Assembly: GCA_040751795.1 (NCBI GenBank) | Contig: JBFMHR010000005.1 | Coordinates: 32,001 to 96,000 of the forward strand | Origin: Thermoplasmatota archaeon | GTDB lineage: Archaea; Thermoplasmatota; Thermoplasmata; UBA10834 | Direction of reading: 5' to 3' | DNA: 64,000 nt | Part shown: positions 1 to 5,928 of the stretch, piece after piece | Position numbering within the stretch: the first letter of the stretch is position 1 | How the letters are laid out: every line of letters starts with the position of its first letter | The notes under the pieces: generated by a model | Database searches by the model: none | What the model saw: the letters and a program-made list of their open reading frames with translations, nothing else | What the model was told of the DNA's origin: nothing | Program-made: the position numbers and the translations under genes

Positions 1-2467
1 CAGATGCGTCGGAGCGGTCGGAGTCGATGAATATCCTGATGTAGTCCTCCGCGGTCTTCCTGACGGGCACGACCGTGCCGCCGCCCCCGCTCCCCGAGGG
101 GACCGCGCAGGCCTTGGGGATGTACACGCCGGCGCAGATCTCGTCGTAGACGCTGACGTAGAAGAACGCGTCGCCCCCGGTGCTGTTGGCCCCGACCTCG
201 TCGATGTCGACGTTGGGGTTCTCCACCAGGGAGCCGTCCTGGTCCTTCACCGTCTTGTTGGTCCAGTCGGCGAAGGCGCCGTCTATCGTTATGCCCGCCG
301 GCGGGCCGGCCACGTAGGCGCTCGCCGGTGCGCCCCTTATGATGACGTCCGTGAAGGTCGACGTGATGCCCTCCAGGACGACGCTGGCCGACACGAAGTC
401 CCCGGGCGCCAGCCCGGAGGTGTCCACCCGGACGTCAACCACATGCGCCTCGCCCACCTCGAGGGAGAAGGGCTGTATCTGGCCGGAGACGTCAGCGCCG
501 ACCGTCTCCGGCACGACGGCGCTGACCGTCCCGTCCTCGCCGTCGCATGTGAACCTGAGCCTGAGGAGGTCCGCGTCCGCCGACGCCGGGACTATGCCGT
601 CGTCCGAGACGCCCGGGGCCAGCTCCTGCTGGACCACGAGCAGCCCGCCCGCGAGGGAGACCGGGTAGCTCGCGCTCTTGACGGCCTCCTCGTCCTGGGA
701 GGTGAGCATCGCCTTGGCGGAGACGTTCAGGGCGCTGGGGAGGGACGCCTTCGCCTCGAGGCGGTCCCCGTCCAGGCCGCAGGGCACGTAGCCGGCGGTG
801 GCCCACGAGTTCCAGTCGGCCTGGTCGTCGCCGTCGGGGTCGTACGCCGAGAGCATCGACGACTGGACGGAGTCGTTCCAGCCGAACACCTCGACCATGT
901 AGTCCGCCCCCACGCCGCCGAGCAGATAGCCCGTCTCGGGCGAGGAGTCCTGGTCGATGAACCACACGAACCTCTGGGCGTCCGTCCCGGACATCAGGTC
1001 GCCCGTCCCGTGGACGTAGAAGTAGACGTCGTGCGAGTAGGTAGCGAAGGACCACTCCACCACGTCCGCAGCTACGCCGGTGGTGGTGCTCGTGACGCTG
1101 AACATGGACGCCTCCTCCCAGTCGGCGAAGTCCCCGTCGACCGAGTAGGGCCCGTCGTCGCCCATGTCCGAGATGTGGAGGTAGCTGGGGACGATGATCG
1201 CCACCGCTATGAGGACCGCGATGAACTGCCAGCGCATGTATATCGGGAGCCTGCGCCTCGCGCCCCTGCCGCGGCGCCTGGCGCCGAGGCCGTTGGACGC
1301 GCCCGTGCCGTTCACGAGGTCCTTGCCGTTGACGGCCCCGATCCCGTTGACGAAGTGGACGCCGTTGGTCTGGCCCATGCCGTTGATGGCGCCGCGGCCG
1401 TTGATCGCCCCCCTCCCGTTTATCGCGCCGCGCCCGTTGATGGCCCCTCTCCCGTTTATGGCGCCCCTGCCGTTTATGGCACCCCTTCCGTTGATGGCGC
1501 CTCTGCCGTTGACGGCGCCCCTGGTGCCCGACGGGCCGAGGCCGTTGACCATGTGCACGCCGTTGGTCTGCCCGCGTCCGTTGACCTGCCCCCTGCCGTT
1601 GATGGCGCCGGCTCCGTTGGTCATGCTGACGCCGTTGGACCTCCCGGCGCGGACGGTCGCCGCCCCTGCGGGCATCTGGGTGACCAGGCCGCGCTCGCCC
1701 TCGGCGACGACGGGCTCGGGCGGCTTAGGCGCCCTGAGCGGCTCGCGGGAGGGGAGGGCCTCCTCTTCCTCGGGCTCCTCGTCCTCGAAGGCGACGCCGC
1801 AGAAGGGGCAGTTGGACGCGTCGAACGTCACGACCGCGCCGCAGATGGGGCACGCCGCCTTCTCGGCGTCGTACTCCTCCTCGGCCTCCCCCTCCGCGGG
1901 GGCGAGCTCGGGCTCGGGGGCCGGCGCCTCGGGCTCGGGCGCAGGTGCCTCCTCCTCCGGCTCCTCGGCCTCGAACTCCGCGCCGCAGCCCGGGCACGCG
2001 GTGTCGTAGATCGAGACCACGTGCTGGCACACGGGGCAGAGCGCCTCCTCATCGCCTTCTGCCTGAGGCTCCGGGGGGGCCTCCGGGGGAGGCTGCCGCT
2101 CACCCTCGACGGGCTCGGCGGGTACGTCTCTGGGGGCCGCCGTCTGGGCGGTGATTGGTGCAGAATCAGGCTCCGATGGACGTTTCTTGACCTGCCCGTC
2201 CGTCTTCAGGTCCTCGATCTCCTCGACGATCTTGTCGAGGGCCTTCTGCCACAGCTGCTCCTCGGCGTTCTCCACGAAGTTGTCGAAGCCGATCTGGCAG
2301 GAGGGACAGGCCTCAAGGAAGGGGGAGACGGGGGTGCTGCAGAAGGGGCACTCGAGCTTGATGTCCGGCCCGAACTTGAGCTTGCATCTAGGGCATTCGC
2401 TCTCCAACCCTGAAACCCTGAGGCTGCAGCCTGGGCAAGAGAATATCCTGGGCCTTATGCGGTTCAT
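1..2467 (-). CDS. Large membrane-anchored protein (3' end runs off the window): N-terminal zinc ribbons, acidic/Pro linker, NG hexapeptide repeats, one TM helix, extracellular CBM9/DOMON-like repeats
   Basis: Translated by hand; not in the ORF track because it has no stop in the window. ATG at 2467 follows a GGAG SD. MNRIRPRIFSCPGC...CPRC...CPFC...CPSC, then further CPVC/CPGC/CPIC/CPFC pairs, (GAINGR)n, RRRLPIYMRWQFIAVLIAVAIIVPSYL, and two DGxFADW...FIDxD units. Frame stays open to base 2. Confidence 0.85.
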   Translation of the reverse strand, partial: MNRIRPRIFSCPGCSLRVSGLESECPRCKLKFGPDIKLECPFCSTPVSPFLEACPSCQIGFDNFVENAEEQLWQKALDKIVEEIEDLKTDGQVKKRPSEPDSAPITAQTAAPRDVPAEPVEGERQPPPEAPPEPQAEGDEEALCPVCQHVVSIYDTACPGCGAEFEAEEPEEEAPAPEPEAPAPEPELAPAEGEAEEEYDAEKAACPICGAVVTFDASNCPFCGVAFEDEEPEEEEALPSREPLRAPKPPEPVVAEGERGLVTQMPAGAATVRAGRSNGVSMTNGAGAINGRGQVNGRGQTNGVHMVNGLGPSGTRGAVNGRGAINGRGAINGRGAINGRGAINGRGAINGRGAINGRGAINGMGQTNGVHFVNGIGAVNGKDLVNGTGASNGLGARRRGRGARRRLPIYMRWQFIAVLIAVAIIVPSYLHISDMGDDGPYSVDGDFADWEEASMFSVTSTTTGVAADVVEWSFATYSHDVYFYVHGTGDLMSGTDAQRFVWFIDQDSSPETGYLLGGVGADYMVEVFGWNDSVQSSMLSAYDPDGDDQADWNSWATAGYVPCGLDGDRLEAKASLPSALNVSAKAMLTSQDEEAVKSASYPVSLAGGLLVVQQELAPGVSDDGIVPASADADLLRLRFTCDGEDGTVSAVVPETVGADVSGQIQPFSLEVGEAHVVDVRVDTSGLAPGDFVSASVVLEGITSTFTDVIIRGAPASAYVAGPPAGITIDGAFADWTNKTVKDQDGSLVENPNVDIDEVGANSTGGDAFFYVSVYDEICAGVYIPKACAVPSGSGGGGTVVPVRKTAEDYIRIFIDSDRSDAS
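1288..1640 (-). repeat. 18-nt-period coding tandem repeat (xxNGxx hexapeptide, core GAINGR)
   Basis: ccgtt (Asn-Gly on the minus strand) recurs every 18 nt from 1290 to 1632, at 19 of 20 positions. Synonymous codons vary between units. Confidence 0.9.
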
Positions 2468-2811: not shown

Positions 2812-2888
2812 GGGCCCGTGGGGTAGCTAGGATATCCTTCTGGCCTTCGAAGCCGGAAACGTGGGTTCAAATCCCACCGGGCCCGCCA
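2812..2888 (+). tRNA. tRNA-Arg (anticodon TCG), intron-less, CCA encoded
   Basis: Acceptor stem GGGCCCG/CGGGCCC; anticodon arm CTGGC-CTTCGAA-GCCGG; T arm GTGGG-TTCAAAT-CCCAC; discriminator G followed by CCA. Confidence 0.95.
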
Positions 2889-4755: not shown

Positions 4756-5928
4756 TTAGTTGTAGTCCGCGAGGAAGTCGTACCAGCCGGTGTCGACGGC
4801 GAAGTCGAGGCCCGCGTAGACGTAGGACCACGACGACCAGTCCCAGTCCGAGCCCCACCAGATGGAGATGCCCCCGCACATGGTGGTGCTCCCGGCGTTG
4901 TCGAGGCAGATCACCATGCCGTCGACCGCCGCGATCACCGCCTGGCACAGCGCCCTGAGCTCGGGGTCGGTTATCTTGGAGCTCGCCAGCAGCTTGCTGC
5001 AGAGGTCGGACATGTCCACCTGGGACTTCGTGTAGAACACCGAGTAGGTGTCCCTCACCGCGGCCTTGTAGGCCCTGTAGTACGCGCCGAGGTTGGCGTG
5101 TATCTCGTCGCACCACGCGTCTATCGTCGCCATGGACTGGGACAGGGTCCCGAGCTTGATGGCGCTTAGCGTCGCGTAGTAGTATTCGGTCCTCGGGTCG
5201 TAGTACTGGGCCCACCCGGCTATCATGTCGTTCGCGACCTGGTCCGGAGTCCTCGCCGGGTCCAAGGCGACGGGCGTGAACATGAAGTCGTACGGGAAGC
5301 CGTCGCCCGCGACGGTCTCCACCGAGGCGACCAGGATGTCCACGAGCCCGGTCTCGGACACCGCGTACGCCGTCTCGACGCTCGCCATCGAGCACGCGTC
5401 GCACGAGAGGATGTCGATGTACGCGCCGGCGCCGACTATGGCCGCCTTCAGCTCGTCCAGGTACATCCAGTCGTCCGAGGTGTCGTCCCCGCAGAAGCCG
5501 TTCCAGGCGCTCCCGTGGTCCCAGAGGTCCACGAGCAGGTTCTCTGACGGGTACCGCAAGGTCGTCTGCTCGATCACCCACTGCAGCGTCGCCCCGTCCC
5601 CGAAGTTCATCTCAGGGAAGGTCTCGACGATCTGCGCGTCGCCCCCTTCGACAACCCACAGCTCCGTCCCCGGGTACTCCAGCCGGTCGACGAAGGCGAC
5701 TATGTTCACCCCGGCGCTCGCCGGGATGTTCTGCAGGTAGAGGAGGCTGAGCCCCTCCCAGTATGTGTCGAAGTTGTTGTCCGCGTCTATGTACAGGCTG
5801 ATTGTCCAGGGGGCGACACCCTCCGCCGAGGCCCTCCCTGTCAGCCCTCCCGCCATGAAGACGGCGGGGAGGACGAGACAGAGGGAGACGACGGCGCAGG
5901 CTGATGCCCCGCGTAGTCCCCTATTCAT
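4756..5928 (-). CDS. Secreted clostripain-family (C11) cysteine peptidase
   Basis: Signal peptide; WTISLYIDADNN; EMNFGD; catalytic DHG (WDHGSAW) and DAC (SCDACSMA). Confidence 0.9.
   Translation of the reverse strand: MNRGLRGASACAVVSLCLVLPAVFMAGGLTGRASAEGVAPWTISLYIDADNNFDTYWEGLSLLYLQNIPASAGVNIVAFVDRLEYPGTELWVVEGGDAQIVETFPEMNFGDGATLQWVIEQTTLRYPSENLLVDLWDHGSAWNGFCGDDTSDDWMYLDELKAAIVGAGAYIDILSCDACSMASVETAYAVSETGLVDILVASVETVAGDGFPYDFMFTPVALDPARTPDQVANDMIAGWAQYYDPRTEYYYATLSAIKLGTLSQSMATIDAWCDEIHANLGAYYRAYKAAVRDTYSVFYTKSQVDMSDLCSKLLASSKITDPELRALCQAVIAAVDGMVICLDNAGSTTMCGGISIWWGSDWDWSSWSYVYAGLDFAVDTGWYDFLADYN

Follow-up and report, generated by a model that had tools for sequence, protein, structure and literature searches.

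An expanded Asn-Gly hexapeptide array beside the signal anchor of a large Thermoplasmatota surface protein

What is the tandem array of Asn-Gly (NG) hexapeptides that lies just N-terminal to the membrane helix of a large archaeal protein, and what might it do there? The initial annotation of the window (the whole stretch of DNA analysed, 64 000 nucleotides) had reported 19 in-register NG hexapeptides and suggested that they form an Asn-ladder beta-solenoid or an amyloid-like oligomerization module, with an isoAsp timer as a conceivable role. It is now largely shown that the array, with its 19 NG units, is a lengthened version of the module by which a protein family is defined, and that this module, the motif [R/T/K]-G-[A/L/M]-[V/I/T]-N-G in tandem, sits about 20 residues cytoplasmic of the signal-anchor helix in surface proteins of Thermoplasmatota that make up a large superfamily without a name. 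We tentatively suggest that it may serve as a flexible docking strip and argue against a solenoid that folds by itself.

The host protein and its array

The host gene overruns the start of the window: the full CDS (G000:C45:30469-34467, minus strand) encodes 1332 aa and starts at window position 2467, and the part inside the window (2..2467, minus strand, like all features given below) covers aa 1–822, the gene continuing to G000:C45:30469. In order, the protein carries zinc ribbons, acidic linkers, the NG array, an Arg-rich stretch, a membrane helix, an ectodomain and a PEF-type tail. The first zinc-ribbon pair (aa 8–58; 2294..2446) has visible CxxC pairs and matches Pfam Zn_ribbon_15 at E 4.2e-5, below the cut-off of that family; a double zinc ribbon region (aa 144–228; 1784..2038) matches DZR at 28 bits (cut-off 27.3) and Zn_ribbon_3 at 26.9 bits, and an acidic Pro/Glu-rich linker, recognized by charge and composition (aa 229–273; 1649..1783), leads into the array. 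The array itself (aa 274–393; 1289..1648) comprises 20 hexapeptide units, 19 with a terminal NG, and bears a net charge of +11. It is followed by an Arg-rich juxtamembrane stretch (aa 394–412; 1232..1288), a signal-anchor helix that starts with WQF (aa 413–431; 1175..1231) and is indicated by both AlphaFold2 and conservation, and the start of the ectodomain (aa 432–822 of 432–1300; 2..1174), which contains beta-sandwich domains with a DGxFxDW motif and is modelled at pLDDT 87. Foldseek matches of the ectodomain are GH145, sialidase, PL42 and lectin propellers (E ~1e-8), the propeller lying outside the window. An 803-aa ORF on the plus strand over the same DNA was taken as a shadow frame of the GC-rich gene, because every homolog and domain match supports the minus strand.

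The minus-strand translation is identical with the peptide that had been claimed, and the span given for it (1288..1640) is off by only a few bases. The host protein holds 21 NG dipeptides, 19 of them within aa 278–393 and 2 in the other 1212 residues; 17 of the spacings within the array are of six residues and one is of 12, such that all 19 NG share one register modulo 6, which is kept, as had been noted, across the single interruption, the degenerate unit LGPSGT. Considering that only 2 of 21 NG fall outside the array, and that, by our own arithmetic, random placement would bring the remaining 18 NG into register with the first at a probability of about (1/6)^18, a chance origin is excluded. 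Tandem Repeats Finder reports, at 1373–1523, periods of 18 (8.4 copies, 78% matches) and 54 (2.7 copies, 81%). Within the array, seven consecutive and identical RGAING units form an expanded core (aa 322–363; 1379..1504), the submotif GQTNGVH(M/F)VNG does occur twice (aa 299–309 and 365–375), and the three membrane-proximal units (aa 376–393; 1289..1342) are the portion that can be aligned across the family.

The seven RGAING units differ at six variable nucleotide columns, none of which alters the peptide (at least nine synonymous and no non-synonymous changes), in line with the codon differences between units noted earlier; since these units were picked for their identical peptides, a synonymous-only test on them is biased, and the comparison with environmental contigs provides the independent check. 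Among the 40 of 171 differences listed against such contigs (from three studies), all 13 that fall in the array are synonymous, as against 19 synonymous and 8 non-synonymous differences outside it. One environmental contig is short by exactly one 18-nt unit, at position 1410, syntenic orthologs carry 7 to 19 NG units, and the array thus varies in length by whole units. The earlier claim of selection on the peptide rather than recent slippage is borne out by the synonymous-only changes in both comparisons, and at the sequence level the array is under purifying selection on its peptide. Among sequencing runs, none contained more than 0.17 of the sampled words, the single RNA run (X20) containing 0.05.

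In 167 arrays of the wider superfamily the composition is G 31%, N 17%, P 0.3%, E 0.8% and D 0.5%, against P 16%, E 13% and N 0.7% in the 100 aa upstream, a difference from the Pro/Glu-rich flank which argues that the array is no generic linker. Charge is distributed in a similar way along the relatives: the 120 aa N-terminal of the array have a net charge of −26 in the host protein and an excess of negative charge in 109 of 127 relatives; positive charge prevails within the array in 125 of 127 proteins, and the 20 aa that follow it carry +8 in the host protein (median +5 in the 127 relatives). In agreement with the first reading, we infer that the array lies on the cytoplasmic side, since helix 1 is preceded by an Arg-rich stretch, the C-terminal helix is followed by a basic tail, and the ectodomain includes a sialidase/GH145-like propeller. 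An N-glycosylation sequon (N-G-T) was considered and rejected, since Thr follows NG in just 28% of units (Arg in 27%) and the array would also be cytoplasmic.

The module in the family and the wider superfamily

Searches returned 129 homologs at E<=1e-3, and the 120 listed show full-length ectodomain homology at E 8e-130 to 2e-55. The array is present in all 120 of these listed matches, with 3–16 units each (only 3–4 units in 40 of them), and its spacing is six residues in 554 of 606 cases (91%); both the repeat and its period, for which a check of orthologs had been proposed, are therefore found in the family. Across the same 120 homologs, unit position 2 is G in 89% and position 4 is V, I or T in 96%, and of the 118 listed homologs with a helix-start Trp motif, 74 have their last NG 20 aa ahead of that Trp. 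In alignment A1 (76 rows), G123, N132, G133 and G135 are invariant and N126, G127 and G139 are conserved in at least 90% of rows (together corresponding to aa 377–393), as are the helix residues W159, L165 and A167. A search of genome contigs confirmed 294 of 395 candidate stretches, and family matches occur in 37 of 41 sampled relatives, at up to 21 per genome. Degenerate units in the listed homologs show no systematic drift from Asn to Asp.

Beyond the family, the array recurs in a superfamily cassette in which it is followed by a membrane helix within ~11–35 residues and then by the DGxFxDW domain (167 arrays among 260 proteins). Over these 167 arrays the spacing is 6 in 71%, 4 in 14%, 2 in 5% and 12 in 4% of cases (29% other than 6), arrays with 4-, 2- and 10-residue periods being found in the same cassette; copy number runs from 3 to 37, and V, I or T precedes the Asn in 90%. 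The cassette is joined to other domains in P0123 (KaiC), P0149 and P0213 (HhH, Zn and TPR), P0178 (17 FG-GAP repeats) and P0137 (subtilase). It is thus largely shown that the series of array, basic stretch, conserved helix and DGxFxDW beta-sandwich is constant, and that the parts on either side vary: zinc ribbons, HhH, TPR or a KaiC-like ATPase inside, and outside the sialidase-like propeller in the host protein and FG-GAP, subtilase or DUF11 elsewhere.

The C-terminal tail resembles PEF-CTERM/archaeosortase substrates in having P-E-F, a hydrophobic helix and a basic C-terminal tail (P861 and F863 invariant and E862 in at least 90% of 60 rows), a likeness of the host protein and not of the array; an N-terminal second anchor with an NG array falls outside the definition of that family. 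The curated PEFG-CTERM model (TIGR04296) reaches no more than E 0.35 and 10.6 bits on the relative P0020, short of its cut-off of 25. The host genome has an exosortase/archaeosortase family gene (PF09721, 49 bits, G000:C45:106170-106820), and 28 of the 37 family-positive relatives have an archaeosortase as well. In 78 loci no conserved co-directional neighbour was found, only two housekeeping synteny blocks; a KaiC-like neighbour (25 of 78 loci) was rejected as a partner, given that it lies within a housekeeping synteny block on the opposite strand.

No family in Pfam, NCBIfam or the PDB covers the array, which agrees with the earlier statement that it belongs to no named family, and a literature search returned nothing on the NG module or its protein family. 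An ESCRT paper (PMC11188069) was set aside as unrelated to the NG module, to judge from the part of its text available. A PDB sequence search with the array gave no similar solved structure, the best match being a dockerin at a chance-level E of 0.013. The Asp/Asn ligands of the EF-hand loop occupy positions 1, 3, 5 and 12, and a dockerin/EF-hand calcium loop was rejected because the aligned unit has no acidic residue at two ligand positions. ESM Atlas gave no usable match for the array slice; for P0014 residues 290–700 its leads all score below 0.9, including a CBM9-like cluster at 0.82.

Candidate roles of the array

With less than even confidence, we favour the array as a flexible, basic, multivalent strip of short motifs that would serve docking or clustering beneath the membrane. 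Such a strip would be proline-free, acid-free and positively charged, each unit offering a small turn-prone contact site made of an aliphatic residue, a beta-branched residue and Asn-Gly; among its possible uses, multivalent docking along the cytoplasmic face of the membrane, as a kind of ‘sticker’, seems the most likely. It could link surface proteins sideways with one another or with a common sub-membrane partner, or bind them to the anionic membrane surface and to the acidic linkers that they carry, with the number of units (3 to 37) setting valency and reach. Multivalent linear-motif arrays are recognized by just this combination of a constant motif core with loose spacing and number, and the mixed spacing of 6, 4 and 2 is easier to reconcile with a short linear motif than with a solenoid of fixed geometry. 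FG repeats of nucleoporins and NPF/DPW arrays of endocytic adaptors are multivalent linear motifs in disordered regions, and the NG array would work in a like manner, with a conserved motif of 3–5 residues, loose spacing, variable copy number and Gly/polar spacers; this is an analogy of working and not of homology, and no receptor or cohesive behaviour is known for the NG array. The lack of a conserved co-directional neighbour in the 78 loci speaks against docking to a partner, and two observations count against a flexible strip. In peptide chemistry an exposed Asn-Gly in a truly flexible chain deamidates within hours to days, and the strict conservation of Asn at 19 sites so prone to deamidation hints at protection by structure or binding; moreover, near-exclusive V/I/T before Asn-Gly and the absence of Pro are also what beta-strands and turns demand, and an ordered state may be reached on assembly.

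These same observations lead to the alternative, which we consider unlikely but hold in view, of a beta-solenoid or amyloid-like Asn ladder that depends on assembly, with units as short strands joined by Asn-Gly turns and stacked within an oligomer or between neighbours, so that a stiff rod would form beneath the membrane or signals would be relayed by templating. It would account for the beta-branched residue before Asn (90–96%), the lack of Pro and the Gly at fixed places, for a period of six that dominates in family (91%) and superfamily (71%), and for the strict conservation of Asn, which suggests shielding from deamidation. In the AlphaFold2 monomer (76-row alignment), however, the array has a pLDDT of 43–49 and no secondary structure, a result to be read with the caveat that the method may miss folds never seen and that a repeat of variable length aligns badly; the helix is predicted at slice residues 155–180, with 10-residue block-mean pLDDT of 76, 97 and 95 over slice residues 151–180. 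A homotrimer prediction with three copies of the array (residues 14–150, alignment A1), run without controls, scored 0.00 and speaks neither for nor against binding. Further, hmmscan of the whole protein against Pfam at E<=1 found zinc-ribbon families only and no Hexapep (PF00132) match, the PDB search went no further than the chance-level dockerin, the 40 listed homologs with 3–4 units have just 18–24 residues, and periods of 4, 2 and 10 in the same cassette are difficult for one rung geometry. We therefore do not retain the autonomous Asn-ladder solenoid of the initial annotation; units that stack between molecules, or once a ligand binds, are a conceivable variant.

Known repeats of similar look bear on the same question. 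In the hexapeptide left-handed beta-helix (PF00132, LpxA-like acyltransferases) eighteen residues make one turn, and the consensus resembles the array in its period of six and in a recurring aliphatic followed by a turn-prone Asn/Gly and a small residue; in contrast, the array lacks a profile match and a modelled beta-helix, lies next to the membrane and not in an enzyme domain, and, although its six-residue period is constant in the host protein, comes down to 3–4 units in a third of the listed homologs (40 of 120) and to other spacings in 29% of the superfamily. Curli CsgA and the fungal and bacterial amyloid signalling motifs form Asn/Gln-Gly ladders from repeats of 19–23 residues or longer, extracellular or terminal, with a partner bearing the same motif. 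Like the array they have short Asn-Gly repeats with hydrophobics between; they work by stacking, a trait that the array might share, and the array differs in having units of 4–6 residues, an internal position and no known partner motif. The PPE-MPTR (NxGxGNxG) and PE_PGRS proteins of mycobacteria also carry long tandem Asn/Gly-rich short repeats of variable copy number and are envelope-associated and exported, whereas the array differs in period and motif, is cytoplasmic and is archaeal. A published analogue that favours the ladder is the NG-rich cytoplasmic extension of Mycobacterium marinum MmpL12, a C-terminal extension which the available text of PMC12507525 presents as predicted to be beta-helical, proposed to aid trimerization and without sequence homologues, and where NG-rich repeats of curli are cited as beta-solenoids. 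Both are NG-rich repeats that a membrane protein carries apart from its folded core, and both might aid oligomerization, a likeness of description; the authors’ model, as far as that text goes, has beta-strand/beta-helix propensity and the array model has none, and the extension is C-terminal in a bacterial RND transporter whereas the array is N-terminal to the signal anchor of archaeal surface proteins.

It is about as doubtful that the array is a passive element, a Gly-rich spacer that adds positive charge by the signal anchor, keeps the N-terminus inside (the positive-inside rule) and holds the zinc-ribbon part off the membrane. Its place directly N-terminal to the Arg-rich stretch and helix, the net positive charge of nearly all arrays (125 of 127), the variable length and the lack of predicted structure would suit such a role, but a spacer needs neither an invariant Asn-Gly nor 96% V/I/T at one position nor synonymous-only variation, long Pro/Glu-rich linkers are already present in the same proteins, and topogenic charge is already supplied by the separate Arg-rich stretch. 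Less probable again is a sorting or insertion signal, a motif before the signal anchor that a factor specialized in targeting or insertion would recognize, as with extended signal-peptide regions of some bacterial proteins: the array goes with the same helix type and the same first ectodomain however the other domains vary, at a constrained distance from the helix and with up to 21 matches per genome, but the gene neighbourhoods yielded no candidate factor, a ten-fold variation in copy number is unusual for a targeting signal, and a Tat signal was rejected since most listed homologs have a single R or K, mostly Arg, before WQF in place of a twin-arginine motif. Finally, a chemical clock, in which Asn-Gly deamidates with time to Asp/isoAsp and the basic strip becomes acidic and kinked, marking old molecules for turnover or release, is very improbable: Asn-Gly is the fastest-deamidating dipeptide, 19 such sites lie in a stretch without predicted structure and the host genome has a gene for the PCMT repair methyltransferase, but PCMT is present in 14 of 14 control genomes and so says nothing specific, the conserved V/I/T, fixed Gly and fixed membrane distance are left unexplained, and the degenerate units of the listed homologs lack a systematic Asn-to-Asp drift.

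What the array may mean for the archaeal cell surface

Going further, we suggest as a long shot that NG arrays could be a new cohesive repeat, by which dozens of different surface proteins per cell, and their acidic linkers too, would be knit into a mesh or condensate below the membrane. It would connect the external machinery that binds sugars with the internal modules (zinc-ribbon, HhH, TPR and KaiC), as an inner skeleton of surface-protein tails that slow Asn-Gly deamidation would age and dissolve. Were the strip only a spacer, the outcome would be an annotation note for an unnamed family. Few predicted surface proteins of uncultivated Thermoplasmatota are as large or as numerous as those that carry it, and Pfam has names for their zinc ribbons only; the NG strip is the one inside element common to all of them, and it is the chemically most fragile sequence possible and yet is strictly conserved. 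Knowing what the strip binds, or how it assembles, would tell how these archaea organize and anchor their cell surface, and would add to biology a conserved multivalent short-motif array of prokaryotes.

An Asn-Gly array beside a membrane helix

The minus-strand translation reproduces, at every letter, the GAINGR-type repeat peptide recognized in the initial annotation, and we confirm that the Asn-Gly (NG) repeat is real and that a chance origin is ruled out. The host gene lies on the minus strand, starts at window position 2467 and extends past the window start; its complete coding sequence occupies C45:30469-34467 of genome G000, in which the window is C45:32001-96000, and specifies a 1332-aa protein in which 19 of 21 NG dipeptides fall within aa 278-393, spaced by 6 residues (n=17) or 12 (n=1) and all in one register. 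The array (aa 274-393; window 1289-1648, minus strand) comprises 20 hexapeptide units, one of them decayed (LGPSGT), and includes seven consecutive RGAING units and two copies of a GQTNGVH(M/F)VNG block; Tandem Repeats Finder reports periods of 18 (8.4 copies, 78% matches) and 54 (2.7 copies, 81%).

The protein begins with CxxC zinc ribbons (Pfam DZR, 28 bits; Zn_ribbon_3, 26.9 bits), beyond which a Pfam scan of the protein found no family and NCBIfam gave sub-threshold matches only. Acidic Pro/Glu-rich linkers then lead to the array, which is followed by an Arg-rich stretch and a membrane helix starting WQF (an AlphaFold2 helix at residues 155-180 of the modelled slice; 10-residue block-mean pLDDT of 76, 97 and 95 over slice residues 151-180). 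Next comes an ectodomain of ~870 aa with a confident fold (mean pLDDT 87), whose C-terminal part matches GH145, sialidase, PL42 lyase and lectin beta-propellers in Foldseek (E ~1e-8), and the C-terminus carries a P-E-F motif, then a helix and a basic tail. An exosortase/archaeosortase family gene is present in the same genome. Since the two basic clusters that flank the ectodomain each lie on the far side of its helix, we infer that the N-terminal part, including the array, is cytoplasmic.

Around the gene, no neighbour was found to be conserved in the same direction. An antisense open frame of 803 aa (window 2-2413, plus strand) spans the whole gene; since it has no evidence of its own, we regard it as a shadow frame in a gene with 65% GC. 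A tRNA-Arg (anticodon TCG; window 2812-2888, plus strand) lies ~350 bp upstream of the gene start on the opposite strand, and window 4756-5928 (minus strand) holds a 390-aa ORF with a hydrophobic N-terminal stretch, presumably, from its appearance by eye, resembling a secreted clostripain-type peptidase.

Family conservation and turnover of units

A search with aa 230-700 returned 129 proteins at E<=1e-3, and the best 120 of these (E 8e-130 to 2e-55) come from Thermoplasmata-type metagenome bins and are unnamed or annotated as 'zinc ribbon domain-containing'. All 120 carry an NG cluster immediately before the helix, with 3 units in 4 proteins, 4 in 36, 5 in 6, 6 in 38, 7 in 9, 8 in 13, 9 in 4, 10 in 6, 11 in 3 and 16 in one; within these arrays the spacing is 6 in 554 of 606 cases, and the units follow the consensus [T 47%, R 32%, K 6%]-G 89%-[A 31%, L 28%, M 18%]-[V 50%, I 31%, T 15%]-N-G. 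The final NG precedes the helix Trp by 20 residues in 74 of 118 homologues, and in a 76-row alignment the invariant columns fall in the three most membrane-proximal units. The array is a conserved, unnamed module that defines a family, on which we found no literature.

Genome G000, from which the window comes, encodes three full paralogues of the same architecture with 5-7 NG units, and one more distant relative whose array consists mainly of 4-residue units of the GLTNG type (family loci C1:458469-461861, plus strand; C1 around 112191-113243, minus strand; C45:170521-173601, plus strand; and L005, C45:225300-228700). In the syntenic orthogroup, in which leuD and leuC come after the NG-array gene on the opposite strand, unit counts are 7, 7, 7, 7, 7, 8, 10, 11, 11, 15 and 16, against 19 in the window array and in its 81%-identical orthologue; the window array has thus expanded, within its clade, from an ancestral form with ~7 units.

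Among the seven RGAING units, six nucleotide columns vary, requiring at least nine changes, none of which alters the peptide, where silent ones make up only 26% of the single changes that could occur; this comparison is biased because the units were chosen for their identical peptides. As an independent check we used public contigs of three environmental studies (X2, X3 and X4), each covering window 900-2100 entirely and differing from it by 76-82 letters. Among the 40 listed of 171 differences, the 13 inside the array are all synonymous third-position changes, and those outside comprise 19 synonymous and 8 non-synonymous ones, so that the initial claim of selection on the peptide rather than fresh slippage is supported. 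The X4 contig (93% identical) lacks exactly 18 nt, one unit, within the RGAING run (window 1410), and the X2 and X3 contigs have no indels in the array; the 18-nt loss together with the synonymous-only changes implies that array length shifts in whole-unit steps while the peptide is conserved. In two other contigs the acidic linkers have 3-nt insertions (1758 and 1947).

The wider cassette and its distribution

When the array by itself was used as a phmmer query against 1.84 billion representatives, 144 matches were obtained at E<=1e-3, and in about one third of the new ones the array is followed, after 11-35 residues, by the helix and a DGxFxDW domain. Proteins with this cassette order range from 167 to 3346 aa and have 0-12 zinc ribbons. 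Inside parts recognized by Pfam include a KaiC-type ATPase in P0123 (aa 499-733, fused upstream of the array) and HhH, zinc ribbons and TPR in P0149 and P0213; outside parts include 17 FG-GAP repeats (P0178), a subtilase (P0137) and DUF11 (P0213). At 25 of 78 loci (L015-L070), the RtcB-type orthogroup also has a small KaiC-like gene in its synteny block, on the other strand and non-adjacent, which may be a coincidence.

Across 167 arrays, the number of copies ranges from 3 to 37, spacings of 6 account for 71%, of 4 for 14%, of 2 for 5% and of 12 for 4%, and V, I or T precedes Asn in 90%. The arrays are rich in G (31%) and N (17%), with 0.3% P, 0.8% E and 0.5% D, and the 100 residues upstream contain 16% P, 13% E and 0.7% N; the array has a net positive charge in 125 of 127 proteins, and the linker before it a net negative one in 109 of 127. 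The phmmer matches P0185, P0209, P0211 and P0216 form an unrelated set, with 12-16 NGLxxx units of period 6 near the N-terminus and no subsequent membrane helix; ricin-type, F5/8 type C or CBM6 sugar-binding domains follow the array in P0185, P0211 and P0216 (Pfam). Their repeat is a further unnamed Asn-Gly array with a period of 6.

Of 41 sampled relatives, 37 have the cassette, and a single genome holds as many as 21 matches. The search did not find it in three genomes (G031, G033, G036) that are near-complete and represent other families of the class, nor in one further relative whose genome is 67% complete; G031, G033 and G036 also gave no archaeosortase match. At E<=1e-8 the short cassette occurs in 16 of 151 genomes of a phylum-wide sample (>=85% complete). 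The 78 loci from named records belong to Thermoplasmata, Thermoplasmatota or 'Methanobacteriota' bins, with two exceptions (L068, L073), family fragments on contigs of ~1.1-1.2 kb filed under a bacterial Paceibacterota bin, a label that is probably a binning error.

Readings of the array

The conserved core of 3-5 residues, the loose spacing and ten-fold copy variation, the gains and losses of whole units under strong purifying selection, and the fixed membrane-adjacent place with no predicted fold suggest that the array is a multivalent strip of short motifs rather than a solenoid of fixed geometry. The initial annotation had proposed an Asn-ladder beta-solenoid or amyloid-like module, to which the predictions lend no support: AlphaFold2 (76-row alignment) places the array at pLDDT 43-49 without secondary structure. 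No Hexapep match was obtained in the host protein at E<=1, and the only PDB sequence matches of the array were dockerins (E 0.013-0.064) and a beta-peptidyl aminopeptidase (E 0.12); we rejected the dockerin reading, as the aligned unit lacks two acidic ligand positions.

A beta stack of NG units that forms upon assembly is nonetheless conceivable, if unlikely, given that every Asn-Gly is preceded by a beta-branched residue, that Pro is lacking, and that exposed Asn-Gly is chemically fragile, which argues for some protection. That the array is a passive spacer and topogenic element seems similarly doubtful. A role as a sorting signal appears improbable. The deamidation clock raised by the initial annotation we consider very improbable.

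Repeat regions built of tandem short motifs or rich in NG are already known from membrane proteins. The closest printed analogue found is the NG-rich extension of the membrane protein MmpL12 of M. marinum, predicted to be beta-helical and proposed to aid trimerisation; the same paper names curli repeats as NG-rich solenoids (PMC12507525). For the multivalent strip of the present family, we tentatively favour, while holding it short of probable, a flexible and basic form lying at the inner face of the membrane, where it would serve in docking or clustering.
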